From an uncultured Opitutus sp. (GTDB lineage: Bacteria > Verrucomicrobiota > Verrucomicrobiia > Opitutales > Opitutaceae): a stretch of 64,000 nt of DNA. Made by a program: the position numbers and the translations under genes. The notes below the pieces were generated by a model. The model was not told the DNA's origin and did not search any database. It saw only the letters and a list, made by a program, of their open reading frames with translations. The number at the start of each line of letters is the position of its first letter. Positions within the stretch are counted from its first letter, which is position 1. Positions 45,645 through 58,913 of this stretch are shown here, piece by piece. Where the stretch lies: NCBI GenBank assembly GCA_966252355.1, contig CBINOT010000001.1, positions 724 to 64,723 of the forward strand, in the 5' to 3' direction.

Positions 45645-46976
45645 TCAAGGTATGACTGAAATGGAAAGCGTCGTGCCGGTGCTGACCGATGTGCCGTTCT
45701 CGAACGATAGGCGTCCAATCGGCGTCCCGTCCGGTCCCGCCGGTGCGCTAAACTGCATCGACCCTGGCGCGTAAAAACCGCCGCGGTCTGCGGCGCTCGA
45801 CAATAACGGTACGCCCAAAACCGACTTTGTGCGCGAGAATGTCCACGAAGCGCCATCGGTCGCCGCGCCGTTCGGGACGACGGGAGTTGCGGCGACGACG
45901 ACGGCATCTGCCCACAACGACAATGCATCGGCCGCGAAAAACGATTTCAGGTCGCCGGAGAATGGGCCGGCGACATCGTGAAACGTCGCTTGGAAGCCGA
46001 TCGATTGCGCCATCCACGCGTTGCCGAACACCGCTTTTGTCGTCGCGGGAAAATCGATCTTCAATGTCACCGCGCCGCTTTGCACCGCATAGAAGCTCGC
46101 ATAGTCGAAAGCCAGCGTGGCGCCGCCGGCATTTTCGACGGTGTTGCGAGCGACGATGGGCGCTCCTAAGCCAATCTTGTAGTCGAAGTTTGTGTTCGTG
46201 CTCGGCTCGTAAATCTGGAGCCGGCCATCGGGTCGGGTAACAAACCAGCGCGTGCGCCCATCGGCCAAGGTCGCACTGCGATCGCCGCCGCCGACATTGC
46301 CGGGATATTCGGTCCAAGCCGCTCCGGTCACATGGTTCAGGAGATCGATGGCCGTAACGGTGTAGCGGACCGCATCGGGCGCGCGGACTGTGGCGAAGGG
46401 CTGGTTCAATACCATGCTCACGTTCGTGCCTGCAGCGCTGGCGGCGACGATCTCGAGCGTATAGGGATCGCCCGTCCCGGCGGGAGATAGAGCGTTCGCT
46501 GCGACAATGGAGCCATCCGCCGGTGTCACCACCGGTGCTGGCATGACTACGGGAGCCAGCGGAGCCGCGGGTTTCGTTCGAGCAGCTACCGCGCCGCCGG
46601 CCCCGATCTGATAGCCTGCGCCAACGAGTCGCGTTTCGGCCACGGTATTATCGAGGGCTGCGCGCAGTGGAACGATCCGAGCGATGCCAGGCGTTGCGGT
46701 CACTTCGTCGTGCGTGACTGCCAGCTGCGGCACCGTGGGGACGGATGCATTTGTCACCGACATCAGCCCCGGTGCGAGGGATGGATCGATTCCGGCGGCG
46801 AGCGCTTGGTCGTTGAACGATCGCCACGCTTCACGACGTCCTTGCTGGCCCATGGCGCTGTTCAGATCGTGAATGCGACTCACAAAGATCAGAAAAGGCC
46901 CGAGCACCACGCCGACGAACACAATGGCGATGACGAACTCGATTAACGTGAATCCAGCGATGCGCCTCGGTTTCAT
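45645..46976 (-). CDS. Large minor pilin/pseudopilin
   Basis: Class III signal MKPRRIAG|FTLIEFVIAIV; ATGA overlap. Confidence 0.85.
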   Translation of the reverse strand: MKPRRIAGFTLIEFVIAIVFVGVVLGPFLIFVSRIHDLNSAMGQQGRREAWRSFNDQALAAGIDPSLAPGLMSVTNASVPTVPQLAVTHDEVTATPGIARIVPLRAALDNTVAETRLVGAGYQIGAGGAVAARTKPAAPLAPVVMPAPVVTPADGSIVAANALSPAGTGDPYTLEIVAASAAGTNVSMVLNQPFATVRAPDAVRYTVTAIDLLNHVTGAAWTEYPGNVGGGDRSATLADGRTRWFVTRPDGRLQIYEPSTNTNFDYKIGLGAPIVARNTVENAGGATLAFDYASFYAVQSGAVTLKIDFPATTKAVFGNAWMAQSIGFQATFHDVAGPFSGDLKSFFAADALSLWADAVVVAATPVVPNGAATDGASWTFSRTKSVLGVPLLSSAADRGGFYAPGSMQFSAPAGPDGTPIGRLSFENGTSVSTGTTLSISVIP

Positions 46977-48331
46977 AGCCGCACGGTGTTGGTTGCCACG
47001 TACACCACGCGCGGAGCGATCGCTTCGATCGCACTGGGTAATGGCGCGCTGGTGACCGCATGTTCCGGAATTCCGGTGCTGCCGGACCAATACGAGAGAT
47101 GCCCTACGGTAATGGGGCCGTCGGGATTCATCGTGCTCGTCGGATCTAGAAACAGCGCCCCGTTGAGCGCGGTGCCGGCACCCGCGATTACGCGAATGTT
47201 GTAGCCGACGATCACGATGGGACGTGCGATCGTCGTGAGCTCAACCGTCAGCGGCCCTGTGCCGGAATCGGCGGGCCCCAAGATCAGAAGAAACAGCGGC
47301 GATGTTGCCGTGCTTCCTACCGAGTCGGATAGACGGATGGTTTTCCCAATCTCTTCGGTAAAGACGACCGCGGCATCTTTGATGAGCGTCACCGTCCCGT
47401 ACGTTCCGCTGCCGGCAAGCGCGAGGTCCCACGAAGTCACCAGTCCTGCCGTGCTCATGCCTGCCAGCGTGGCCGTGCCCGATGCAGCATCGAGGTCGTG
47501 AAAGTGCGTGATGCCCGCATACTCGGCCACCCGATCGACGAACAGTTGCGAGAAGAGGTATTGATACGCCGCGGCGAGCGTGGCGCGGCGACGATAGTGG
47601 TACGGCAGAACGCCCTTTTGCGCTTGAAGGTCTGGCACGAAAGCAGCATCGCGCGATGGCACGAGTCCCCTTGGCGAATCCGGCGACGGTGCGATGACCG
47701 GAGCGGCGTCCGTCCGACCGATCTCGACCGGAAGATCGTATGCGGCGATCGGGAAGCGCGTCAGGGGCACGGCCATCAAGCGTGCTTTTACCTGGGTGCG
47801 ATACGTGCGGGTCGCGTCGAGAACCGTCCGTTCGCTGGCGAACTCGAACGTCGCTTCCGGATAGGCGGCAACGCGCGGGCCAACGAGCAAAGCGAGCTCT
47901 GGCGTGAGATACGGCTGTAAATCGGCGGAGACCGAGCTCAGTGCATCAGGTACGGCCGTTGCGTTTGGAAATCCCACGGTCGACGGCAGCGAGCTCGGTA
48001 TGACCGTCGCCGTAATCGCCGGATCGCCGTTGGTCAGTTGCCGCAAATGCACGTTAAGTGCCTCGGCCAGTGGCGTCGTCGATACGGACACCGCGATTTG
48101 GCGCGCGTCCAAGATCGTTTCAGCGACGACGCGTTCCAACCGGACGCTTTCGGTCGCGCCTTGCCGGTACGTATCGTAAGCGCGCGATGTCGTCGCAACG
48201 CTCGTCAACACCAGCACCTGCATTGAAGCGACCACCCCCACGAACGCGACGATAACCACGAACATCACGATCAGGTAGCCACCGTTGCGGGAGCGTTGGA
48301 TGCCTCGGCTGACATTTCCGGCGATCGTCAT
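46973..48331 (-). CDS. PilX/GspK-like minor pilin
   Basis: RSRNGG|YLIVMFVVIVAFVGVV signal lacking Glu5, as in PilX/GspK; large globular C-terminus. Confidence 0.75.
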   Translation of the reverse strand: MTIAGNVSRGIQRSRNGGYLIVMFVVIVAFVGVVASMQVLVLTSVATTSRAYDTYRQGATESVRLERVVAETILDARQIAVSVSTTPLAEALNVHLRQLTNGDPAITATVIPSSLPSTVGFPNATAVPDALSSVSADLQPYLTPELALLVGPRVAAYPEATFEFASERTVLDATRTYRTQVKARLMAVPLTRFPIAAYDLPVEIGRTDAAPVIAPSPDSPRGLVPSRDAAFVPDLQAQKGVLPYHYRRRATLAAAYQYLFSQLFVDRVAEYAGITHFHDLDAASGTATLAGMSTAGLVTSWDLALAGSGTYGTVTLIKDAAVVFTEEIGKTIRLSDSVGSTATSPLFLLILGPADSGTGPLTVELTTIARPIVIVGYNIRVIAGAGTALNGALFLDPTSTMNPDGPITVGHLSYWSGSTGIPEHAVTSAPLPSAIEAIAPRVVYVATNTVRL

Positions 48332-49131
48332 GGCGATACGGCGAGAAAATAGCTGAAGCGCGAAAACGCGGGGATGTCATCGGCCTGACCACGACTACCG
48401 GCGTAAACCCAGGGATCGGGGAATACGGCGCAAGTGGGTCCTTCTTCGCTCACAGCCCCGACGCGGTAACGCAGCCAGGTGTGAACGGCGCCGATGAATA
48501 CGCGCGACGAAAACGCCGGGCGTTCAGCATAGGCATAGCGCTGCGCACCTTCTTCGGCGTCCCATAACTTTACCTCCCGTACGGTAAATGGAATCGTCTC
48601 GGTGCCGTCGGATACCGAAATATCGTGTCGGCGTACTTGGACGAGACAGGTAATCGCGAGTGAGTTTCCGTTCATCCCGACCATCGCGACGGAAAAATCT
48701 TCGGCCGCCGTGTTGGTCTCCTGATCGCCCAGCTCCGACGCATACAAATCGTAGAAGCTCTTGGCATCCATCGGCAGCCCCCGCGTCATGTCGGCGATCA
48801 CGGGAAGCGTTTGGAGCTTCAGAGGACGCACCTGAGCAGCCGCGGCCTCGGTCGGAATTGAGAGGTGTTGTCCGCCGAAGACGTAGATCGCCCGTGCTGC
48901 AGCGGCCCGATTGGTCAACGTGTGATGCAAGCGCACCGCGGACGGAAATGAGCCGAAGGTTGGCGCGATGGGCAGCTCTTCACTGGAAAGCGTCACCCGT
49001 TGCGGCTGCAATCCTCGGATAAGCGCGATCAAGCCCGCCAGCAACGCCACGACTACGATGGACGACATGACCAGCACGATGACGACTTCCGCCAAGACGA
49101 AACCGCCCTTTGCCTCTACCTTGGGCTTCAC
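48328..49131 (-). CDS. PilW/GspJ-like minor pilin
   Basis: MKPKVEAKGG|FVLAEVVIVLV class III signal. Confidence 0.82.
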   Translation of the reverse strand: MKPKVEAKGGFVLAEVVIVLVMSSIVVVALLAGLIALIRGLQPQRVTLSSEELPIAPTFGSFPSAVRLHHTLTNRAAAARAIYVFGGQHLSIPTEAAAAQVRPLKLQTLPVIADMTRGLPMDAKSFYDLYASELGDQETNTAAEDFSVAMVGMNGNSLAITCLVQVRRHDISVSDGTETIPFTVREVKLWDAEEGAQRYAYAERPAFSSRVFIGAVHTWLRYRVGAVSEEGPTCAVFPDPWVYAGSRGQADDIPAFSRFSYFLAVSP

Positions 49132-49527
49132 TCAATCAGGGTAGTTAAGAGTCCCGCCGGCTTTGTCGCGAAGGACGGTCTTTGCTTTCAAAGCGCCTGC
49201 CAGGGTCAGTGTATAACCGCCGGTTGCGCTTAACCAATCCGACGGCGATCCGGTCAAGGTCCCGGCGTTCACGAGCAAGGTTGAACGATCGGCGTCGGAC
49301 GCGGCGGCGGCCCACTGCGTCGCCGCATCGGGCACGGTCATGGAATAGGTGAGCCGGGCCGCGTTCACAATCCGCGCTTTATTGACAGCCGCGGCTTCGC
49401 GACCCGCCGGCACTACATTGGTAAACCCACCGACGACCATGGTGGCGAGCAGTCCAATCACCATGACGACGACAAGGATTTCGAGCAGCGTGAACGCTGC
49501 TCGTGCCGTAGGCCGAGTCTGGTGCAT
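49132..49527 (-). CDS. Type IV pilin-like protein
   Basis: ARAA|FTLLEILVVVMVIGLLA, with Ala rather than Gly at -1. Confidence 0.88.
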   Translation of the reverse strand: MHQTRPTARAAFTLLEILVVVMVIGLLATMVVGGFTNVVPAGREAAAVNKARIVNAARLTYSMTVPDAATQWAAAASDADRSTLLVNAGTLTGSPSDWLSATGGYTLTLAGALKAKTVLRDKAGGTLNYPD

Positions 49528-49530
49528 TGG

Positions 49531-49977
49531 CTACGGCCTTTGTGTACGATCGCCGAGCTTGGCGGCGAAGGTCGGAGGCTTGGTCGATGTTCCGGCCGTG
49601 AAAGTATACGCGGCGGGATTAACGACCTGTTTCAGCTTCACTTCTTGTTTCTGTCCGCCTGGCACCGTTGCGGGTATCTCCACCCCGGCGGTTAACGCGT
49701 TGATGGCGGAAGTGCCATCGGCCCAAACGGACGTGTCGACGCCAGAGTTAAATAGCGTCTCCGCAAACTGATTCAACACCTGCGCGTTGTGGGTTTTCGC
49801 GGTGTCGTTCGTTGCATCGAAAAATCGATCGACCGTCGGAATAACGAGTGCCGCTAAAAGTCCGAGCGCAACGATCACGAGCAAGACCTCGAACATCGTA
49901 AAACCCTGCCGCTTACGGCGGCGCGGTGACGGCGAAGCAAGCTGCGCAGCAGCCTGAGAGGTGAGATTTTGAGTCAT
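49531..49977 (-). CDS. Type IV pilin-like protein (probable major pilin)
   Basis: RRRKRQG|FTMFEVLLVIVALGLLAALVIP; first gene of the operon; alternative GTG start at 50004. Confidence 0.9.
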   Translation of the reverse strand: MTQNLTSQAAAQLASPSPRRRKRQGFTMFEVLLVIVALGLLAALVIPTVDRFFDATNDTAKTHNAQVLNQFAETLFNSGVDTSVWADGTSAINALTAGVEIPATVPGGQKQEVKLKQVVNPAAYTFTAGTSTKPPTFAAKLGDRTQRP

Positions 49978-50152
49978 AGGCGAGGAGGTTGGAATCTGGA
50001 GCACTTAGTTATGGTAAAATAGCTTTTATAGCGTCAACGACGAAAACGGCAATTAGATTTTACAATGGGTTGCGATTGGTGTCCTAGCACGACGCCGCCA
50101 TGGCACCGACGACGACCTTGCTCTCGCTCGTGCGAAATTATTGGCTGCCGTC

Positions 50153-51019
50153 ATGCGTGTCAGCCGCATCGTCATCGTCATCAACCAGGGCAAGGCCCAC
50201 GCCCGGCGCACCGCCGAGGCATTGAAGGAGCTCTTCGACGCCCATGGCGTCACGCAGGACTGGCGCGACGCCTTGATGCCCACCAAGGGGCGGTCGCATC
50301 AACTCAACGATCTCCGTCACACCGACGCCGACCTGATCGTCGCTTGCGGCGGCGACGGCACGTTGCTCCAGACCGCCCACCGCGCCCGCGGCTCCGGGGT
50401 GCCGATTCTGGGCATCAATATCGGCTACCTGGGCTTCATCACCTCGGTGCCAGGCAACAAGGTCCGCTCCGCCATGCGGCGGATTCTCGACGCCGACTTT
50501 GTCGTCAGCCGCCGGACCACCCTCGACGTGGACGTCGAAACGAGCGGCAAATCCGCGCCGGGTTGGGCGTTGAACGATGTCGTGATCGGCCGCGGACCTA
50601 ATCCGCATCTCATCGCCTTGGAAGCCCGTATCGGACCGCGCCCGCTTACGCGCTACCGCTGCGACGGGCTGATCGTCGCGACGCCCACGGGATCGACCGC
50701 TTACTCGCTCGCGGCGGGCGGGCCGATCGTGAGCCCGGAGTGCAATGTGCTCATCGTTACGCCGATTTGCCCGCATGCGCTCACCAACCGGCCGCTGGTG
50801 ATCAATTCGACGGAGACCGTCGAATTTCGGCTCGCGCGCGGCTCCGGCGAGGGGCTCGTGCAGGTCGACGGCATGCCGATCTCCAAGGTGGAGGCGGCGA
50901 GCGTCATTCGGGTGAAGACCTCGGCGGACACCGTGCCGATCGCCTTCCTGCCCGAGATCAATTACTACGATGTTCTCGGCGAGAAACTCGGGTGGACCGG
51001 CGACGGCTTGAAGGGTTGA
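50153..51019 (+). CDS. nadK: NAD kinase
   Basis: GGDGTLL, GINIGYLGF, LNDVVI, DGLIVATPTGSTAYSLAAGGP. Confidence 0.96.
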   Translation: MRVSRIVIVINQGKAHARRTAEALKELFDAHGVTQDWRDALMPTKGRSHQLNDLRHTDADLIVACGGDGTLLQTAHRARGSGVPILGINIGYLGFITSVPGNKVRSAMRRILDADFVVSRRTTLDVDVETSGKSAPGWALNDVVIGRGPNPHLIALEARIGPRPLTRYRCDGLIVATPTGSTAYSLAAGGPIVSPECNVLIVTPICPHALTNRPLVINSTETVEFRLARGSGEGLVQVDGMPISKVEAASVIRVKTSADTVPIAFLPEINYYDVLGEKLGWTGDGLKG

Positions 51020-51023
51020 GCCG

Positions 51024-52652
51024 ATGAGCACGCTGCTCTTTCCCGGGCGACATCTGGTCAACACGCGCTTTCAACAAGAGTATCTCCGCCAGTTGATCGG
51101 TCGCCGGCCGGCGGAAATCCCGGATTGGCGAGGCCGCGGCGCGAGACCGGCGACGCCGATCGATCGCGTGGTGTTCGCCATCACGTCATCGAACCAGGAT
51201 GCGTCGCGCTTCAATCCCGTGCCGTTTCACATTCGCGCGATCGGCGTCGATCGCTTCGCGCGGGAGCTCGCGGCGACGGCTCCGTTTACCTACCGCATCG
51301 TCGGCGTCCCGCATTACGGGCATACGCCGAACTTCGCGGCGTTCACCTTGAAGGAGATCGCGGGGCAGACGGAGAACCTCGAGCGGCTCACGCCCGAAAA
51401 CACGGTGGTGCTGTGCTCCACGCCGGAGGTCCTTCGGCTGTACGAAGAGCTCGGGTATGGCATCGCCCCGGCCGAGCTGGCGGTGACGCCGCCACCGGCC
51501 ACGCCAATCGATCTCGTGCGGGCGATCGCGGACGCCGGCGCGCGCTGGCCCGAACAGCCGCTCGTCGCGGCGCAACTGGCGCCCGCCACCCGGACGCTCT
51601 TGCACGATTTTCCGGAGGTGCCCGAGCGCATCGGCCGGATTTATCGCGACCCGCTCACGAATCAGGAAGGCAGTCTCACCGAGCGGCGGAACTACAACAC
51701 GTATGCGCGCGGGATGAACGCGATCCTTCGCCTCAAATATCTCGATATCCGCGACGCCATTCGCCCGGGACGGATCGTCGACGAGGGGTGTGCGGACGGC
51801 GGCTTGCTGGCGGAAGCCGCGCAGGATTTTCGGGATTCGGATCTCTATGGCATCGATTTATCGGCGGAATTCGCGGCGCGCTTTCAGGAACGGAAGCGCG
51901 CCGGGGATTTCGGCGACGTCTATACCTGTTTCTATCTGCGCAATCTGCTGGATCCGATTTTCGAGGCGGAGTCCGTCGACACGACGATCTGCAATAGCAC
52001 GCTGCACGAGCTCTGGAGCTATGCGGAGCAGGAGAAGACGGTGCGGGGGTATCTTGGGATGAAGCTCGCCCAGCTGCGGCCGGGCGGCCGTCTGATCGTG
52101 CGTGACGTGGTCGGGCCGGAAAACGGTGACATGCTCGTGGCGTTGCACTGCGCGGCCGACGACGGGATGGCACTCGCGCCGCAGGATGTGCCGTCGGATC
52201 GACCGGCGAGTGTGCTCGAGCAATTGTCGACCCGCAGCCGTTTCCTGTTGTTCGCCGCCGACTTTCTTGCCGACCAGCGGATTCGCGGGCGGCGGGGTGA
52301 CGACGCCCGGGTGCAGTTCGAGGAGCGCGACGGACGATTTTATCTCTCGTTACGCGCCGCGGCGGAGTTTCTCTCGAAGAAGGACTATGTGGACAACTGG
52401 CGTTCGGAGATGAACGAGGAATTTTGTTTCTGGAGTTTTACGCGCTGGAAGCAGGTCCTCGGCGAAGTCGGCTTCCGCGTCATCGACGCGGCGCCGAACA
52501 TTCCGTGCGGCTCGCGGGTGTACGCGAATCCTTGGATCGTCGAGCAACGCTATCGCGGTCGCGTGCAGCTCGCGTCGGCGACCGCACCCGAACGAGCGAT
52601 CGACTTTCCGCCGACGAACATGGTGCTCGTCGCGGAAAAGCCGGAGCGGTAA
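51024..52652 (+). CDS. Nucleotidyltransferase-like N-terminus fused to a class I SAM methyltransferase
   Basis: N-terminal LFPGRH...TSSNQ...FNPVPFHIR recalls NadM/HIGH-fold motifs. C-terminal IVDEGCADG, YGIDLS, CNSTLHEL and LRPGGRLIVRD are class I methyltransferase motifs. Confidence 0.7.
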   Translation: MSTLLFPGRHLVNTRFQQEYLRQLIGRRPAEIPDWRGRGARPATPIDRVVFAITSSNQDASRFNPVPFHIRAIGVDRFARELAATAPFTYRIVGVPHYGHTPNFAAFTLKEIAGQTENLERLTPENTVVLCSTPEVLRLYEELGYGIAPAELAVTPPPATPIDLVRAIADAGARWPEQPLVAAQLAPATRTLLHDFPEVPERIGRIYRDPLTNQEGSLTERRNYNTYARGMNAILRLKYLDIRDAIRPGRIVDEGCADGGLLAEAAQDFRDSDLYGIDLSAEFAARFQERKRAGDFGDVYTCFYLRNLLDPIFEAESVDTTICNSTLHELWSYAEQEKTVRGYLGMKLAQLRPGGRLIVRDVVGPENGDMLVALHCAADDGMALAPQDVPSDRPASVLEQLSTRSRFLLFAADFLADQRIRGRRGDDARVQFEERDGRFYLSLRAAAEFLSKKDYVDNWRSEMNEEFCFWSFTRWKQVLGEVGFRVIDAAPNIPCGSRVYANPWIVEQRYRGRVQLASATAPERAIDFPPTNMVLVAEKPER

Positions 52653-52679: not shown

Positions 52680-53222
52680 CTACGGTCGCACGGACAGATA
52701 CTGCGGCGGCACCTGCTCCGTCAGCCAGACGCCGTTGGCCGAGCGGAAAAACCGATGTCCGTCCGCGTGCATTCGCTCCGCCGCAACGTCGAACACGACC
52801 GGTCGACCGTGGCGCCGGCCGACCTCGACGGCCACGGCGTAATCGGCCGAGAGATGCACATGGTGGCGGTTGCCGCGTACGAGACCTCGGGTGCGGATGG
52901 AGTCGAGAAACCGATCCGCGGTCCCGTGGTAGAGGATATCCGGCGGAGTGACTGGCTCGTAGGCGAGGTCGACGTCGACCGAATGGCCCTGATTGGCGCG
53001 GATGCGCTGGCGATCTTCGCTGAAGGCGAATCGCTGCTTGTCGCTTTCGGCGACGAGGCGCTCGAGCAACGGCCGCGTGAGCGAAACGCCCGCTGCGTTG
53101 CAACCGCGGAGCAGCGCCTCCACCTCGACCCAACCCGACGCATCCAGCGTGAGGCCGGCTTTCTCCGGCTGGTGCCGAAGCACGAGACTGAGGAATTTAC
53201 TGAGACGAACGTGATCGGACAT
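52680..53222 (-). CDS. kptA: RNA 2'-phosphotransferase Tpt1/KptA
   Basis: SKFLSLVLRH.P...GL.LD..GW, DKQRF, IRANQGHS, LYHGT, HVHLS, NGVWLT; start is ATG 53222. Confidence 0.96.
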   Translation of the reverse strand: MSDHVRLSKFLSLVLRHQPEKAGLTLDASGWVEVEALLRGCNAAGVSLTRPLLERLVAESDKQRFAFSEDRQRIRANQGHSVDVDLAYEPVTPPDILYHGTADRFLDSIRTRGLVRGNRHHVHLSADYAVAVEVGRRHGRPVVFDVAAERMHADGHRFFRSANGVWLTEQVPPQYLSVRP

Positions 53223-53227
53223 GACGT

Positions 53228-53749
53228 TTAAGATTTCGTTTGGGGATCGAGAGCGGCGGCGTAAGCGGTCCAGACTGCGTCCGTGAAGCAGGAAACCCAG
53301 AGGTGTTGAATCGTATCGTCGGTTTCCAGGTGAGCACGAAGGGTGCGCACTGCGACCTGCGCCGCGTCCGTGATAGGATACCCATAGACGCCGCAACTGA
53401 TCGCAGGAAACGCGATGGTTTTGATGTCGTGCTGCGCGGCCAAGCGAAGGCTCTGGCGATAGCAGGACGCGAGCAATTCGGGCTCGTTTTGGGATCCACC
53501 GCGCCACACCGGACCGACGGTGTGAATGACCCATCGCGCAGGCAGACGATAACCGCGGGTAATCTTCGCTTCGCCGGTTTTGCACCCGCCCAGGGTTCGG
53601 CACTCCGCCAATAATTCAGGACCGGCGGCCCGGTGAATGGCACCGTCAACACCACCGCCGCCGAGCAGCGAGGAGTTGGCTGCGTTCACGATCGCATCGA
53701 CCTGAAGGCGGGTGATGTCTTCGCGGGTGAGCTCGATCGTCGCTTTCAT
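53228..53749 (-). CDS. ymdB: MacroD-type macrodomain (O-acetyl-ADP-ribose deacetylase / ADP-ribosyl hydrolase)
   Basis: DIT...[46 protein letters not shown]. Confidence 0.96.
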
Positions 53750-54987
53750 GCCCCTTGTTCGTGCAGGTGGAGCTGCGAGCCGAGCGCGCCGTCGATGCGG
53801 ACGATTTTGTCCGGGTGCTGGTATTGCGCGACGAGATAGCGCGTCAGATCGACGTGCAGGCCACCGATGCCTTGCAGGAAGGCGAGTTGCTCGGCGTTGT
53901 CCGACCGGCGTTGTTCGAGCTCCAACGCGTGGCTACGCTCGCGTAAGGCGAGATCCTGTTCCGCGGCGTTGCGCGCGAGCTCGAGCTCCTGCGTCTTTTG
54001 GGTGCGCTCGAGGCGCAGCTTGGCCTCGGCGCCGAGGGCGTTCAATCGCGTCTGGTGGACGACGCGCTCCTGTTCGACGGCCTGACGCTCCTTTTCGCGC
54101 TCCGCGTCGCGCTGCTGCTTCATGTCGGCGAGATCCTGCGCCTGCTGCTCGGTTTCCGCTTCGAGCCGCAGCTTGGTCCGCGTTTCGATCGCATCGTCGT
54201 GCATCGTCTGCAGCGTCGGACTCGCCTGATAGCCGCGGTAAACGACCTTGCCGATGCGATAGCCGATCGCCGCCGCGCGCTTCACAAGCTGCGGGTAGGT
54301 TTCCAACGCGTTGAGCTTTTCCGTCTTTTCCTTGAAACGCTCGAATGGCTCCGTCGCGGCGAAGTCGATCACGTCCGCGGTCGCCGCATTGATGAAATCG
54401 GCGATCGGGTCGTGCGTTTGGTCGAGCATGCGTTCGATGTCGTCGAGTTCGAAGAACAGCATGAGCTTCACCGTGAGCAACGCATCGTCGGCCGTGCGCA
54501 CGCATTCGACGTCATAGTACATCTGATCGGGGATCACGCGCAGCTTATCGAATTGCAATGCGCTCGGCTGCTTGCGCCGGTGATCGCGCGGATCGGCTCC
54601 ATGCCAGCTGAAGTGGTGCAGCCACTCGTCCGGCGCCGGCATGAACAACGCCGGGCCGCGCTCGATCCGGCGGCTCACGCCGGCGGCGGTCGGACGGTAC
54701 ACGACGATCGCCTCGTTGGCATCGAGCTTGATGAGCGGCGCGACCCGGATGGTTTCGATGGTCACCGGATCGAGCCAGGCAGCCGACGGACCGCGTTGGT
54801 GCGCCGTGCGGCCGTCTTTGTGCGCGATTACGAGATAGTGGTCCGGGCCTGCGGTGTGGCGCTCGAGAGCCTGCACCGTTTCGCCGAAGAGCGCGAGGCG
54901 CCGCGGGCCGTCGACGAGCCGCGCGTCGCCGTTCCGGCCCCACACGAGCACGCGTTCACCTTGCGGAATGACAGTGAATCCGATCAT
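53746..54987 (-). CDS. Major-vault-protein-like / SPFH protein (three vault-like repeats, shoulder domain, coiled coil)
   Basis: Three repeats ending in GP ([22 protein letters not shown]); [22 protein letters not shown] and [14 protein letters not shown] resemble the MVP shoulder; long E/Q/R coil; start ATG 54987. Confidence 0.7.
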
Positions 54988-54992
54988 GGCGT

Positions 54993-55844
54993 TTACCTGC
55001 GTTGAGTTTCTGCCGGACAGCCGGCGAATTGAGTTTGGAAGGCGCCGAGCACCGCGCTGCCGGGACTGCGATCGAAGATCGCGAACACAATCTCGCCAAA
55101 GACATCGTGAAAGCGCCCGCCGGCGAGCAACAGCTCCGCGAACACGCGGGCAACGAGAGCGGGATCGTTGCGAAACACGCCGCAGCCCCAGGCGCCGAGA
55201 ATCAGCCGCTCGATTTTCTCGGCGGCAGCGACGGCGAGAACTAGTTCCGCACGACGACGCAGCGTCGGCTCGATCGACGCGGCGTCGTCGGGCTGATTCT
55301 GGAGCACGGCGCCGGCATTTGGCGCCGGAGCGGTGACGATCGAGCAACAGGCGATGCGCTCGAGCAGAGTACCGTCGTCGGCGCGGAAGAACGGCACCGC
55401 CGGAGAAAAAATCGCGAGATCGAGGTACAGCGCCGACCGCTGGGCGCGGTTGCGTTCGTAGTAGCTGGGTTGAGTCAACAGACACGGGTAGAGCGCCGAC
55501 GAGCGCGCCAGCGCTTCTTCCTGGGCTTGAGCACCGCCGAGAAATCCACCGCCCGGATTCTTGGCCGAAGCGAAGTTGAGCGCGGCCAGGGCACCACCGC
55601 CGGCGCATTCCATCCGCACGATCGCCTCGCACGTCGTTTCCGCTGTCACGCTGATCTGCGTGGGGCCGGGTCGTCGCGACAAAGGGCGGTCGACCACGGC
55701 GAGGTCGTAAAGACGGGTTCCCGCTCTGGCCGCCGCGACGAGCGGCGCGAGCGAAAGAGTGGTGCCGCCGGGCGAACGATATTCGCCCGCCGCGATGATA
55801 CGCAGGGTTTCCTCCGCCAGGGCGGCTCGATCGTTTCGGGGCAT
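54993..55844 (-). CDS. TIGR02452/DUF2263 bacterial PARG-like macrodomain
   Basis: LNFASAKNPGGGFLGGAQAQEEALAR (PARG GGG-x6-QEE signature) and LILGAWGCGVFRNDP. Confidence 0.92.
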   Translation of the reverse strand: MPRNDRAALAEETLRIIAAGEYRSPGGTTLSLAPLVAAARAGTRLYDLAVVDRPLSRRPGPTQISVTAETTCEAIVRMECAGGGALAALNFASAKNPGGGFLGGAQAQEEALARSSALYPCLLTQPSYYERNRAQRSALYLDLAIFSPAVPFFRADDGTLLERIACCSIVTAPAPNAGAVLQNQPDDAASIEPTLRRRAELVLAVAAAEKIERLILGAWGCGVFRNDPALVARVFAELLLAGGRFHDVFGEIVFAIFDRSPGSAVLGAFQTQFAGCPAETQRR

Positions 55845-55880: not shown

Positions 55881-56495
55881 TTAGGCGAGCAACGTGCTGT
55901 GGGTGATGGTCACCCCGGCGGTTTTCATTTCGGCGATGGCCTGCTTGGCGTCGCCGGGTCTGAGATTCACGCCGCGGCAGCCGTCCTCGATCAGATATGT
56001 GGCGAAGCCGAGGGCGCGCGCATCCAGCGCGGTGGCCTTCACGCAATAATCGGTGGCCAGCCCCAGGATAAAGACCTCGGTCACACCGTGCTGACGCAGG
56101 TAATCGCCGAGGCCCGTGGCTTTCTTGCGGCCGTTGTCGAAAAAGCCGCTGTAGCTGTCGATTTCCAGATCGGTGCCTTTCGGAAAGACGCGAGCGATGC
56201 GCTTGGTTTCAAGGCGCGGAGCAAACGCGGCGCCGGCGGTGTTTTGCACGCAATGCACCGGCCAAAGCACCTGCGGGAGTCCGCCAAGCTCGCCGAGTTC
56301 CCCCGACTTTCGGTGAGGGTGATTGGCCGCGAAACTGCCGTGATTCGCCGGGTGCCAGTCCTGGGTCGCGGCAATCAGCTCGAACGCGGTTTGCACGCGA
56401 TTAGCGACCGGCACCACGGCGTCCCCCTCCGGCACGGCCAGCGCGCCGCCCGGGAGGAAGTCGTTTTGGATATCGACGAGAACGAGCGCTTTCAT
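55881..56495 (-). CDS. pncA: Nicotinamidase/pyrazinamidase
   Basis: VDIQNDF, QDWHP, WPVHCVQ, KG...DSYSGF, GLATDYCV. Confidence 0.96.
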   Translation of the reverse strand: MKALVLVDIQNDFLPGGALAVPEGDAVVPVANRVQTAFELIAATQDWHPANHGSFAANHPHRKSGELGELGGLPQVLWPVHCVQNTAGAAFAPRLETKRIARVFPKGTDLEIDSYSGFFDNGRKKATGLGDYLRQHGVTEVFILGLATDYCVKATALDARALGFATYLIEDGCRGVNLRPGDAKQAIAEMKTAGVTITHSTLLA

Positions 56496-56500
56496 GCGGT

Positions 56501-57190
56501 TCAAAGTTCGAAGTTAAAGCCCGCTTTGTTCAGCCGGCGGTAAGTCGGCTCGTCGAAGCGATAGAGCCGCGCCGCGCGATGGGCCACGTCCTGCTGAATC
56601 TCTTCGGTGTCGGCGAGCAGGCCCATGCTCAGGATCTTCTTGCGGAAATTCCGCTTATCGAGCGGCTGCTCGAGGATGGTTTCATAGAGCCGCTGCAGCT
56701 CCGACAACGGGAACTTCTCCGGCAGCAGCTCGAAGCCGATCGGCTCGTAGCGAATCTTCCCTTTGAGCCGCCGGAGCGCGACCTCGAGAATCTCCTCGTG
56801 GTCGAAGGCAAGCTGGGGGAGATCGGCCACCGGGAACCACGCGACATTGCGCGCATCGCTGGCGGCCCGCACGGCATGATCCGCGAGCTTCACCAAGGCG
56901 TAGTAAGCGACGCTGATCACGCGCTCCCGCGGGTCGCGCTTCGGCTCGCCGAAGGTGTAGAGCTGCTCGAGGTAAAGCTTCGTGATGCCGGTCTCTTCCT
57001 CGAGCTCGCGCCGCGCGGCGTCTTCCAGGCTCTCGTTGATGTTCACGAACCCGCCGGGCAGCGCCCATTTTCCTTTGTAGGGCGCGAGATCGCGCTGGAT
57101 GAGCAAAACCTTCAGATCGGCGTCATCGTAGCCGAAGACGACGCCGTCAACCGTGACGGCGGGGTGCGGGTATTCGTAGGTGAAGGGCAT
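56501..57190 (-). CDS. nrtR: NrtR regulator (Nudix plus winged HTH)
   Basis: WALPGGFV...[44 protein letters not shown]; NAD-salvage context; start ATG 57190. Confidence 0.93.
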
Positions 57191-57212: not shown

Positions 57213-57231
57213 TGGTGTAAAAATAACACTA
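57213..57231. promoter_or_regulatory. NrtR-type operator 1
   Basis: TGGTGT-AAAAATA-ACACTA (GT-N7-AC palindrome) upstream of nrtR. Confidence 0.8.
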
Positions 57232-57241
57232 AGCAAGTCTA

Positions 57242-57260
57242 AAGTGTTCGAAGTACACTA
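57242..57260. promoter_or_regulatory. NrtR-type operator 2
   Basis: AAGTGT-TCGAAGT-ACACTA. Confidence 0.8.
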
Positions 57261-57422: not shown

Positions 57423-58892
57423 TCAGCCCGCGACGGGCCGGTGCTGGAGGATGAGGTCCGTCTTCAATGCGGACAGGGCAGGCTCGAGGCCGACGGGATA
57501 TTCGTGCGGGTTCAGCAAACGCTTCGTGCCCGCATGGAGCATCGCCAGTTGCGCCTGTGTGCGCGCCCGGATGGCCGGGAGCGGCGGCTCGGCGTAGACG
57601 AGCGCGCCGCCGCGAAAAATCGGCACGAGCAGGTCTTCGCGGGTCGCCGTTGCCGGCATTTCCTTGCGCCGGGTCGGATTGTTCGGATCGACGATGACAC
57701 GCGCGGCGCTGGGTGCGGGCTCGTGGTAGATCATGTCGCCGATGAACTCGCCGTTGCGGGTGAACCGTGCCACTTGGAGGATTCCGGGGGTGGTGATCTT
57801 TGCCGCCTGCTCCGACAGCTTCACCTTGTACGCCCAGGGGCCGCCGGCGTCGCGGATGGCGCCGAGTTTGTAGACGCCGCCGAGCGCCGGTTGATCGAAC
57901 GCCGTGACGAGCTTCGTGCCGACGCCCCACAGGCCGATCTTCGCGCCCTGCTGTTTGAGGCTCGCGATGATGTGTTCGTCGAGGTCGTTGCTGGCGACGA
58001 TCACGGCGGCCGTGAAGCCGGCGGCATCGAGCAGGCGACGCGCTTCGATGCTCAAGTACGCCAGATCGCCCGAATCGAGCCGAATGCCGGCCAACTCATG
58101 GCCCTTGCTCCGCAACCAGCGGCCGACCTCGATCGCGTGCGCGACGCCGGCGAGCGTGTCGTAGGTGTCGACGAGAAACACGCAGTTGTTCGGCATGGCT
58201 TCCGCGTAGGCGCGGAACGCCGCGGCTTCGTCGTCGAACGACATGACCCAGCTATGCGCGTGCGTGCCTTTCACGGGGAGGCCGAAGATCTGTCCGGCGA
58301 GGACGTTCGAGGTGGCCGCGCAACCGCCGATGAAAGCGGCGCGGCTGGCGGCGAGCGCGCCGTCGACGCCCTGCGCGCGGCGCAAGCCGAACTCGAGCAC
58401 CGGTTCGCCCTGCGCCGCGAGGCAGACGCGCGCCGCCTTCGTGGCGACGAGTGTCTGGAAGTTGATCAGGTTGAGCAGCGCGGTTTCGACGATCTGCGCT
58501 TGGAGGATCGGGCCTTTGATGCGCAGCAGCGGCTCGTGGGCGAAAACAGCGGTGCCCTCGGGAATCGCATCCACGTCGCAGGTGAACGTGAAGTCCCGCA
58601 GATAATCGAGAAACGCGGCCTCGAAGAGCGGAGCGCCATCGTTGCCGGTCAAGGTGCCCAGATAAGCGAGATCGGCCTCGCTGAATTTCAGGTCGCGCAG
58701 CCACGCGATCGCGTCGCCCAGCCCGGCGGCGATCGTGTACCCGCTGCGAAACGGCGCTTGGCGAAAGAACAGATGGAAGACCGCTTCCTTTTCATGCATG
58801 CCGGTCCGCCAATAGCCGTACGCCATCGTCAGCTGGTAAAGATCGGTCAGCAAGGCCGACGCCCGGTAGCGAGGAGCAGTCGCGTCGTTCAT
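57423..58892 (-). CDS. pncB: Nicotinate phosphoribosyltransferase
   Basis: [64 protein letters not shown]. Confidence 0.97.
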
Positions 58893-58894
58893 TA

Positions 58895-58913
58895 TAGTGT
58901 CGAAAAGACACTA
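58895..58913. promoter_or_regulatory. NrtR-type operator 3
   Basis: Perfect TAGTGT-CGAAAAG-ACACTA, 2 nt from the pncB start codon. Confidence 0.85.

Follow-up and report, generated by a model that had tools for sequence, protein, structure and literature searches.

A short relative of the major vault protein in a predicted NrtR-controlled NAD salvage and ADP-ribose operon of an uncultured Opitutus species

The function of the eukaryotic vault has been an open question since 1986. Its principal constituent, the major vault protein (MVP), and the proteins of the SPFH superfamily are alike in that they assemble laterally into rings or cages. Here, we describe MVPL (the name used here), a 413-residue protein encoded in a stretch of 64,000 nucleotides, hereafter the window, from an uncultured Opitutus sp. 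(contig CBINOT010000001.1 of assembly GCA_966252355.1; coordinates below are those of the window). We place MVPL in the MVP branch of the SPFH/MVP cage superfamily, as a short and divergent form rather than a canonical MVP, and find that, as judged from sequence, it lies in an operon and regulon controlled by NrtR, an ADP-ribose-responsive repressor. We regard this part of our explanation, namely the identity of MVPL and its regulation, as very likely.

The closest well-studied system is the eukaryotic MVP itself (rat structures 4V60 and 4HL8; human structures 9BW5 and 9MXJ). In both MVP and MVPL, beta repeats, an SPFH-like shoulder, a long cap helix and a cap-ring motif follow each other in the same order, and the two are further alike in their motifs (GP...P.E, the K/R-P loop, PD, TAD, FE and D..D) and in being soluble, by prediction in the case of MVPL, with no membrane anchor. 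Each also has a tie to NAD+ and ADP-ribose, which in MVP is constituted by a ligand pocket together with PARP4 and TEP1, and in MVPL by operon context. However, MVP has about 860-890 residues (about 100 kDa) and nine repeats as against the 413 residues and three repeats of MVPL, and two half shells of MVP, each with 39-fold symmetry, join to form its closed particle. Likewise, PARP4, TEP1 and vault RNA are partners of MVP, but none of them was found among the neighbours of MVPL, where KptA is the only ADP-ribosyltransferase (ART)-fold enzyme. Recent structural work has established that NAD+ and ADP bind to human MVP with affinities of tens of micromolar, in a pocket between the shoulders of neighbouring subunits (Lodwick et al., PMC12280208), that ADP-ribose occupies the shoulder pocket in native brain vaults, and that TEP1 is a TIR-like NADase (bioRxiv 10.64898/2026.05.01.722283). 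These papers of 2025-26 do not settle what the vault itself does.

Full-length bacterial homologues of MVP have been reported from Myxococcota, Bacteroidota and Cyanobacteria (Daly 2013, PMC3762200; Sokolskyi 2019, bioRxiv 10.1101/872010), and phage MVPs have also been described (bioRxiv 10.1101/2023.11.10.566534). They belong, like MVPL, to the MVP superfamily and have no assigned function; but they are about 800 residues long and were found by BLAST with eukaryotic MVP, and the three reports make no mention of short forms, of an NrtR or NAD context, or of representatives in Planctomycetota or Verrucomicrobiota. The SPFH/Band 7 cages (HflK/C, flotillin, stomatin, erlin, prohibitin and QmcA) share with MVPL the shoulder-type alpha/beta domain, the long helix and the type of C-terminal motif, which in these proteins is a strand that closes the ring. 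In contrast to MVPL, with its three beta repeats and no hydrophobic segment, they possess an N-terminal hydrophobic membrane anchor and no vault repeats. On the regulatory side, the published NrtR regulons resemble the window in their Nudix-winged helix-turn-helix (wHTH) repressor, in the GT-N7-AC operator before nrtR and pncB and in their NAD salvage genes, but Planctomycetota are absent from them, and the text of the paper names no hypothetical or Band 7 members (PMC2330246); to this content the window adds ADP-ribosyl hydrolases, KptA and MVPL. We found no paper tying NrtR to vaults, or MVP to nicotinamidase, in a literature search outside which most subscription journals lay.

Kinship with the major vault protein

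The MVPL gene occupies 53746-54987 on the minus strand (413 codons and a stop codon at 53746-53748). A longer in-frame open reading frame (ORF) reaches 55632 and would encode 628 residues, but as the same initial methionine (MIGF...) is common to all 28 diverse homologues compared, we take the 413-residue form to be the real product. An earlier note on this DNA had described a 413-residue protein with three GP-ending repeats, a segment reminiscent of the MVP shoulder and a long coiled coil; all of these descriptions hold up in the analyses that follow, by which the protein is MVP-like rather than an ordinary prohibitin or flotillin.

An AlphaFold2 model of the monomer, built on the family alignment (mean pLDDT 83), begins with three vault-type repeats of five beta strands, each of which contains a GP pair: repeat 1 at residues 1-42 (54862-54987, minus strand; G27-P28), repeat 2 at residues 43-85 (54733-54861, minus; G66-P67) and repeat 3 at residues 86-131 (54595-54732, minus; G111-P112), the last aligning with repeat R9 of MVP (MVP 462-499 by hhalign). 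When their profiles were compared with each other, repeats 1 and 2 matched at 78% probability (E 1.9e-5) and repeats 1 and 3 at 40% (E 3e-4), with no signal between repeats 2 and 3. These are followed by an SPFH-like alpha/beta shoulder domain (residues 132-256; 54220-54594, minus), which hhalign places on MVP 500-604, and by a single uninterrupted helix of 118 residues (257-374; 53866-54219, minus), which corresponds to the predicted coiled coil and is paired with the MVP cap helix in a global alignment. The conserved C-terminal stretch with the motif QLHLHE (53749-53865, minus) has a pLDDT below 50 in the monomer; in the global hhalign alignment it falls on the MVP cap-ring segment with KSTLITDGSSPINLF, its IVRIDG..QLHL being paired with LITDGSSPINLF of MVP, though this stretch of the alignment is of low confidence. 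The maximum Kyte-Doolittle hydropathy over 19 residues is 0.98, and the N-terminus is a beta strand. As there is no hydrophobic segment and hence no membrane anchor, we predict that MVPL is cytosolic and that its vault-type repeats occupy the place of the membrane anchor of SPFH proteins.

Profile and structure comparisons agree on the kinship with MVP. The family profile aligned with rat MVP 296-861 (the sequence used is identical to 4HL8 chain A) at 85% probability (E 5.9e-6); the global mode with 80 sequences gave 91% (E 1.2e-6; MVPL 3-408 against MVP 336-843), and a profile of 12 tetrapod MVPs gave 89%. All three runs yielded the shoulder register that the earlier note had given, with MVPL 88-231 lying on MVP 462-604 and the PD, TAD and FE motifs common to both. 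Further, tblastn of MVPL against contigs encoding protist MVPs reached E 5e-7 at 27-32% identity, the overall identity of MVPL and MVP being about 16-18%. Pfam Vault_3 matched 13 of 28 homologues (best 3.9e-7), and in two longer members of the family, P0124 (44 bits) and P0122 (30 bits), it exceeded the Pfam cut-off. A Foldseek search of the PDB with the model returned MVPs of rat, rabbit and human as its top 11 matches (E 7.1e-14 to 9.4e-10), with alignments that span the whole model; the SPFH cages (flotillin, stomatin, erlin, HflK/C and prohibitin) follow from E 1.5e-7 downward.

NrtR operators and conserved gene neighbourhoods

The genes around MVPL form a tightly packed series on the minus strand in the order nrtR-pncA-PARG-MVPL-macro-kptA, with successive gaps of -4, +36, +5, -4 and +5 bp. 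The repressor gene nrtR (56501-57190) encodes a Nudix-wHTH protein (NrtR_WHD PF21906, 8.1e-29; NUDIX PF00293, 7.6e-23; NF050029 as top NCBIfam match). Its listed GTG start at 57229 falls within an NrtR box, and the true start is probably the ATG at 57190, giving 229 residues like the orthologue from Actomonas. Next come the nicotinamidase gene pncA (55881-56504; Isochorismatase domain; NF008623, 277 bits against a cut-off of 174) and a microbial-type PARG-like gene (54993-55844; PF10021, 4.1e-46; TIGR02452, 4.7e-86). The end of the latter (54993) is separated by 5 bp from the MVPL ATG (54987), and the MVPL stop overlaps by 4 bp (ATGA, 53746-53749) the start of a macrodomain gene of the O-acetyl-ADP-ribose deacetylase type (53228-53749; PF01661, 1.3e-51; NF001664, 248.6 bits against a cut-off of 200), as the earlier note had read the junctions. 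The last gene, kptA (52680-53222; PF01885, 2.1e-52; NF002014, 265.9 bits against a cut-off of 239), whose start codon is confirmed as ATG, encodes a KptA/Tpt1 RNA 2'-phosphotransferase, an NAD+-consuming enzyme of the ART fold. Upstream of nrtR and on the same strand lies the nicotinate phosphoribosyltransferase gene pncB (57423-58892; NAPRTase_N and NAPRTase_C domains).

The palindrome TAGTGT-N7-ACACTA is found upstream of both nrtR and pncB, and carries the GT-N7-AC core of the NrtR operator (Rodionov et al. 2008, PMC2330246). A palindrome search located two tandem boxes (57213-57231 and 57242-57260), each with no more than one mismatch, at a distance of 23-70 bp before the start that we favour for nrtR, and a perfect box (58895-58913) abutting pncB on its upstream side. 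With up to two mismatches allowed, the 64-kb window contains exactly these three boxes as against 0.24 expected, a number reached in 0 of 100 shuffled sequences. Beyond the window, the exact palindrome recurs in 36 of 80 related loci, and with up to one mismatch these loci contain 96 boxes, of which 44 precede nrtR and 19 precede pncB. In three genomes, a box lies 26-34 bp before an MVPL gene that stands alone, namely in a planctomycete (L022), a member of Sericytochromatia (L038) and Algisphaera (L045). The direct association of the operator with stand-alone MVPL genes argues that MVPL is a member of the regulon in its own right rather than a passenger, and the NrtR control postulated in the earlier note is thus borne out by operators both in the window and elsewhere. 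A scan of the sequence for promoters and terminators remained at background level.

The wider context was derived from a scan of one genome per species in GTDB, which yielded 124 genomes with a relative; context was counted in 80 fetched loci from Verrucomicrobiota, Planctomycetota, Armatimonadota, Omnitrophota, Lentisphaerota, Sericytochromatia and others. By tblastn with the proteins of the window, same-strand genes for NrtR were found in 52 of the 80 loci, for PncA in 45, PncB in 35, KptA in 28, PARG in 15 and the macrodomain protein in 8. Clustering of neighbouring ORFs, with selection of the longest ORF and naming of clusters by Pfam and NCBIfam, added ADP-ribosylglycohydrolase (ARH; 41 loci, often in two or three copies), NadE (30), a NudE/ADP-ribose-diphosphatase-like Nudix hydrolase (29), NADAR (8) and DUF4291 (7). 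Less frequent neighbours are NadR, PnuC, a DSP-type phosphatase and a nucleoside 2-deoxyribosyltransferase-like protein. The genes typically follow each other as pncB-nadE-nrtR-ARH-pncA-(PARG/NADAR/DUF4291/kptA)-MVPL-nudix-kptA-ARH. The gene directly downstream of MVPL encodes a Nudix hydrolase in 23 loci, mostly at gaps of -4 to +20 bp, and the gene directly upstream encodes PncA in 14 and NrtR in 12. Actomonas aquatica, which is cultured and completely sequenced, has gene calls independent of ours, and these give the order kptA-pncB-nrtR-pncA-MVPL with a 4-bp overlap of pncA and MVPL. The minimal conserved unit is nrtR-pncA-MVPL, and the enzyme partners vary by genome. The link to ADP-ribose genes that the earlier note had emphasized is upheld as a strong enrichment of ADP-ribose and NAD genes, all 59 loci of the type with arginine at residue 150 (see below) having such genes or an NrtR box, but its macrodomain (8/80) and PARG (15/80) components are not the tightest partners of MVPL; these are NrtR, PncA and the NudE-like Nudix hydrolase.

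Several of the recurring genes in the NrtR operons, namely DUF4291, the nucleoside 2-deoxyribosyltransferase-like gene and that of the DSP-type phosphatase (PTP-SAK/PTP-NADK models), for instance at L020:12319-12960, L039:13303-13824 and L003:14657-15205, are candidates for little-studied genes of ADP-ribose/NAD metabolism. A protein search with rat MVP, aimed at the canonical bacterial MVPs, returned vertebrate MVPs only, and a metagenome scan with the tetrapod MVP profile recovered mostly short or intron-bearing eukaryotic contigs, among them two compact ones with IP3-receptor and HECT genes. Since these contigs are eukaryotic, their lack of NAD genes says nothing of bacteria.

A putative shoulder pocket and the possible role of MVPL

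Nearly all invariant polar residues of the family are housed in the shoulder domain. The positions invariant in 79 species are W128, H129, K139, P153-D154-Q155, Y157, T165, D167, E180, H192-D193, D197-F198, N200 and D205. Residue 150, by comparison, divides the family, being arginine in 59 and tryptophan in 18 of the 80 loci. The fetched flank of every R150-type locus (59/59) contains an NAD/ADP-ribose gene or an NrtR box, with nrtR itself present in 50 and an ADP-ribose-processing gene in 49 of the 59, whereas such a context accompanies only 1 of the 18 W150 loci. Similarly, the loop at 131-143 has on average 3.5 lysines and arginines in the context-linked members as against 2.5 in the others. 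Members of the W150 subfamily (L057-L080; e.g., L058:9350-11179, L068:280-2046 and L073:2631-4535) have a glycine-rich loop and stand alone. They carry an N-terminal extension of about 90-220 residues, in which an MshEN domain (PF05157, E down to 1e-18) was detected in 7 of 10 tested. MshEN domains bind cyclic di-GMP, and hence the W150 type may be tied to a different nucleotide signal.

The pocket of human MVP is lined by R437, R504, K506, R507, P508, H509, R511, L517, D521, F522, W545, P565 and K573, of which the 'keyhole loop' R504-R511 contacts the NAD+ diphosphate (PMC12280208). In the hhalign register, P141 of MVPL corresponds to P508 and P153-D154 to P520-D521, and the basic loop W128-L144 (54556-54606, minus strand) is the counterpart of the keyhole loop, with a basic insertion of five residues. 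The residue that divides the family, R150, pairs with L517 at the border of the MVP pocket, the invariant THDP..DF..N of MVPL with the P565-K573 wall, and the motifs TAD, FFE and D193/D197 are common to both proteins. Together, these correspondences are suggestive of a shoulder pocket in MVPL equivalent to the NAD+/ADP-ribose pocket of MVP.

ADP-ribose releases NrtR from DNA, as described for the repressors of Synechocystis and Shewanella (PMC2330246). Hence, we propose that MVPL would be made while NAD+ is being broken down. More specifically, it would be co-transcribed, under repression by NrtR, with genes for NAD salvage (PncB and PncA) and for enzymes that release or consume ADP-ribose (the PARG-like and macrodomain proteins and KptA). 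Consumption of NAD+ would raise ADP-ribose, upon which NrtR would leave the operon DNA, and MVPL would appear together with enzymes that free ADP-ribose (PARG, macro, ARH and NADAR) and degrade it (Nudix), with nicotinamide being recycled by the co-induced PncA, PncB and NadE. Lateral packing of the protomers may then build a small ring, barrel or shell that is soluble and vault-like, and this packing would create between the subunits a basic shoulder pocket that holds ADP-ribose or NAD+. Such an assembly could serve as a high-copy sink or holder, which buffers a reactive metabolite or presents ADP-ribose/NAD+ to neighbouring enzymes; it might also give the hydrolases encoded nearby a platform. 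Taken as a whole, with identity, regulation and mechanism combined, the account of MVPL as a soluble oligomer of vault-like kind, induced by ADP-ribose and binding either this compound or NAD+, is one to which we give slightly better than even chances; the cage-plus-ligand mechanism by itself would have even chances or a little less and is put forward tentatively.

Several observations weigh against this account. The MVPL query itself reaches the cut-off of no Pfam vault model (Vault, Vault_2-4 or MVP_shoulder): there is no MVP_shoulder match, and its Vault_3 match over residues 87-135 has 13.9 bits, below the cut-off of 28.8, in contrast to a protist MVP, which scores 156 bits with Vault and 129 bits with MVP_shoulder. 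Searches of the PDB sequences with phmmer and with a hidden Markov model of the 28-member family gave coiled-coil noise only. The Foldseek TM-scores are low (0.3-0.5), which we attribute to the long and bent shape of the molecule, and as MVPL was modelled as a monomer only, the oligomer interfaces lie outside the model. Within the putative pocket, only two or three of the 13 residues are identical (P508, D521 and, in one register, K506), and K506 pairs with the invariant K139 or with R134, the register differing between two hhalign runs. The density of invariant histidine, aspartate, glutamate and lysine in the shoulder could equally mean catalysis or another ligand. Finally, a search of sequencing runs for the MVPL sequence recovered DNA of rhizosphere and soil metagenomes only, and no RNA.

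The last but one of these points bears on an unlikely yet substantial alternative, in which MVPL has the MVP/SPFH fold but acts as an enzyme on an NAD-derived metabolite, or as a partner or regulator of PncA, Nudix or NrtR, and forms no nucleotide-holding cage. This would suit the set of residues H129, K139, D154, Q155, R164, T165, D167, E180, T191, H192, D193, D197, N200 and D205, which are invariant in 79 species, and also the nature of the closest and often translationally coupled neighbours, which are single enzymes (PncA upstream in 14 loci, Nudix downstream in 23). However, we know of no SPFH or MVP domain that is catalytic, the invariant residues align with the ligand-pocket region of MVP, and the 118-residue helix with the conserved C-terminus that is disordered in the monomer has the hallmarks of a ring-former. 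That MVPL is an ordinary membrane-associated SPFH scaffold of the prohibitin, flotillin or HflK/C kind, found in the operon by chance, is the least likely of the explanations that we considered and scarcely credible: against weak Band_7 matches in 3 of 28 homologues, below or near the cut-off, a single homologue named 'Band 7 domain-containing protein' in UniRef and the significant Foldseek matches to SPFH cages from E 1.5e-7, one must set the outranking of every SPFH structure by every MVP structure, the 131 N-terminal residues formed by vault-type beta repeats with a maximum hydropathy of 0.98 and no anchor, and the linkage of the R150 type to the NrtR regulon in 59 of 59 loci.

NAD+ and ADP-ribose play a central part in the conflict of phages with their hosts, some members of the NADAR and macro families have roles in defence, and huge phages encode MVP-like proteins; one could therefore imagine that MVPL belongs to a module for defence against phages, or for counter-defence, built around the depletion of NAD+. 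We consider this highly improbable, because MVPL has no PADLOC match, because no relatives were found in IMG/VR viral contigs or plasmids, and because it lies among housekeeping genes of NAD salvage that a metabolic repressor controls, in a context kept across phyla and not patchy. Closer to our proposal is a shell that mainly encloses or scaffolds the ADP-ribose enzymes of the operon, as a nanocompartment channelling a reactive intermediate, with nucleotide binding being incidental. The variety of ADP-ribose enzymes that flank MVPL (Nudix, ARH, KptA, PARG, NADAR and Macro) would accord with this, as would the eukaryotic precedent, in which PARP4 and the NADase TEP1 are held inside vaults (PMC12280208; bioRxiv 10.64898/2026.05.01.722283). 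Yet the enzyme partners differ by genome, with nrtR-pncA-MVPL as the conserved minimum, no common docking domain or targeting peptide was seen in passing, a dedicated search for one not having been made, and three repeats per subunit would presumably leave a small lumen; we accordingly rate enclosure as a distinctly unlikely primary role.

The earlier note had hinted at an ancient link between vaults and ADP-ribose, and this gains support from the human MVP shoulder pocket papers (PMC12280208; bioRxiv 10.64898/2026.05.01.722283). To these the present work adds bacterial genomic evidence that is independent of the structural work, in the form of a compact MVP-like protein as a core member of presumably ADP-ribose-induced operons of NAD salvage and ADP-ribose recycling from dozens of species in several phyla, in which a single residue at the pocket border (150) tracks the NAD/ADP-ribose linkage. 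Going further, one might imagine that the handling of NAD+/ADP-ribose was the ancestral job of the vault shoulder, that a bacterial vault-like cage arose within an ADP-ribose-sensing NAD salvage regulon, and that the eukaryotic pocket, PARP4 and TEP1 are later elaborations, but we hold this evolutionary scenario to be doubtful. If it were right, MVPL would rank as the first 'mini-vault' of bacteria to which a definite physiological role could be given, and would offer experiments a way into the 40-year-old question of vault function. Several hosts are in culture (Actomonas aquatica, Adhaeretor mobilis, Haloferula rosea, two Cerasicoccus species and Poriferisphaera), so that the vault-NAD/ADP-ribose idea lies within reach of the usual genetic and biochemical methods and of cryo-EM. 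The NrtR regulon is extended as well, and a protein family of about 1,700 clusters at 50% identity comes to light.

Family variants and other genes of the window

The MVPL family is large and well conserved, and has no Pfam or NCBIfam model. A word-indexed search matched at least 934 proteins at E <=1e-3, and an exhaustive search recovered 1,714 clusters at 50% identity, of which 434 had E values below 1e-30. With MVPL itself, a Pfam scan gave a sub-threshold match to UTRA, and no NCBIfam or PADLOC model reached threshold. Forms from Planctomycetota, of about 490 residues, have an extra repeat pair of about 80 residues after repeat 2, making five repeats in total. Among the longer members, P0124 (809 residues), P0194 (762) and P0129 (691) approach the size of MVP with 9-11 'GP' repeats, the 809-residue form having up to about 10-11; they come from AT-rich sequences, and some of them have neither the PDQ nor the THDP motif. 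One Planctomycetaceae contig has two ORFs of the MVPL cluster in tandem (L032:384-1613 and an adjoining ORF), which could be a duplication or a split gene.

Two huge uncultured phages of 462 kb and 735 kb (L163, LR756501.1:5623-30249, and L164, LR756500.1:9441-34739) encode MVP-like proteins of 809 and 827 residues, respectively, which tblastn with a rat-like MVP detects at E 2e-14 and 5e-12 and whose resemblance to MVPL is only weak (E 6e-4). The MVP-like gene of LR756501 has a NADAR gene on the opposite strand at a distance of about 7 kb. The 809-residue protein of this phage was considered as a possible match for P0124, but on comparison they are not the same protein. Searches for relatives of MVPL in IMG/VR viral contigs and in plasmids returned none.

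Within the window, long ORFs run antisense to MVPL and its neighbours (e.g., 53998-55005, plus strand); these are shadow ORFs, typical of DNA with 64% GC. Beyond kptA, the plus strand encodes a 542-residue protein (51024-52652) that combines an unassigned N-terminal region of about 230 residues with a class I S-adenosylmethionine-dependent methyltransferase domain; it has a weak PADLOC match to 'mad2' (7.8e-9) and adjoins an NAD kinase gene (50141-51019, plus). As its homologues adjoin nrtR or MVPL in three loci (L001, L003 and L049), it may belong to the NAD module. Further along, a run of ORFs on the minus strand (45645-50004) encodes proteins whose N-termini resemble a prepilin-type leader followed by hydrophobic segments, e.g., GFTLIEFVIAIVF, AFTLLEILVVVMV and GFTMFEVLLVIVA, and is probably a pseudopilin or type II secretion-like cluster.

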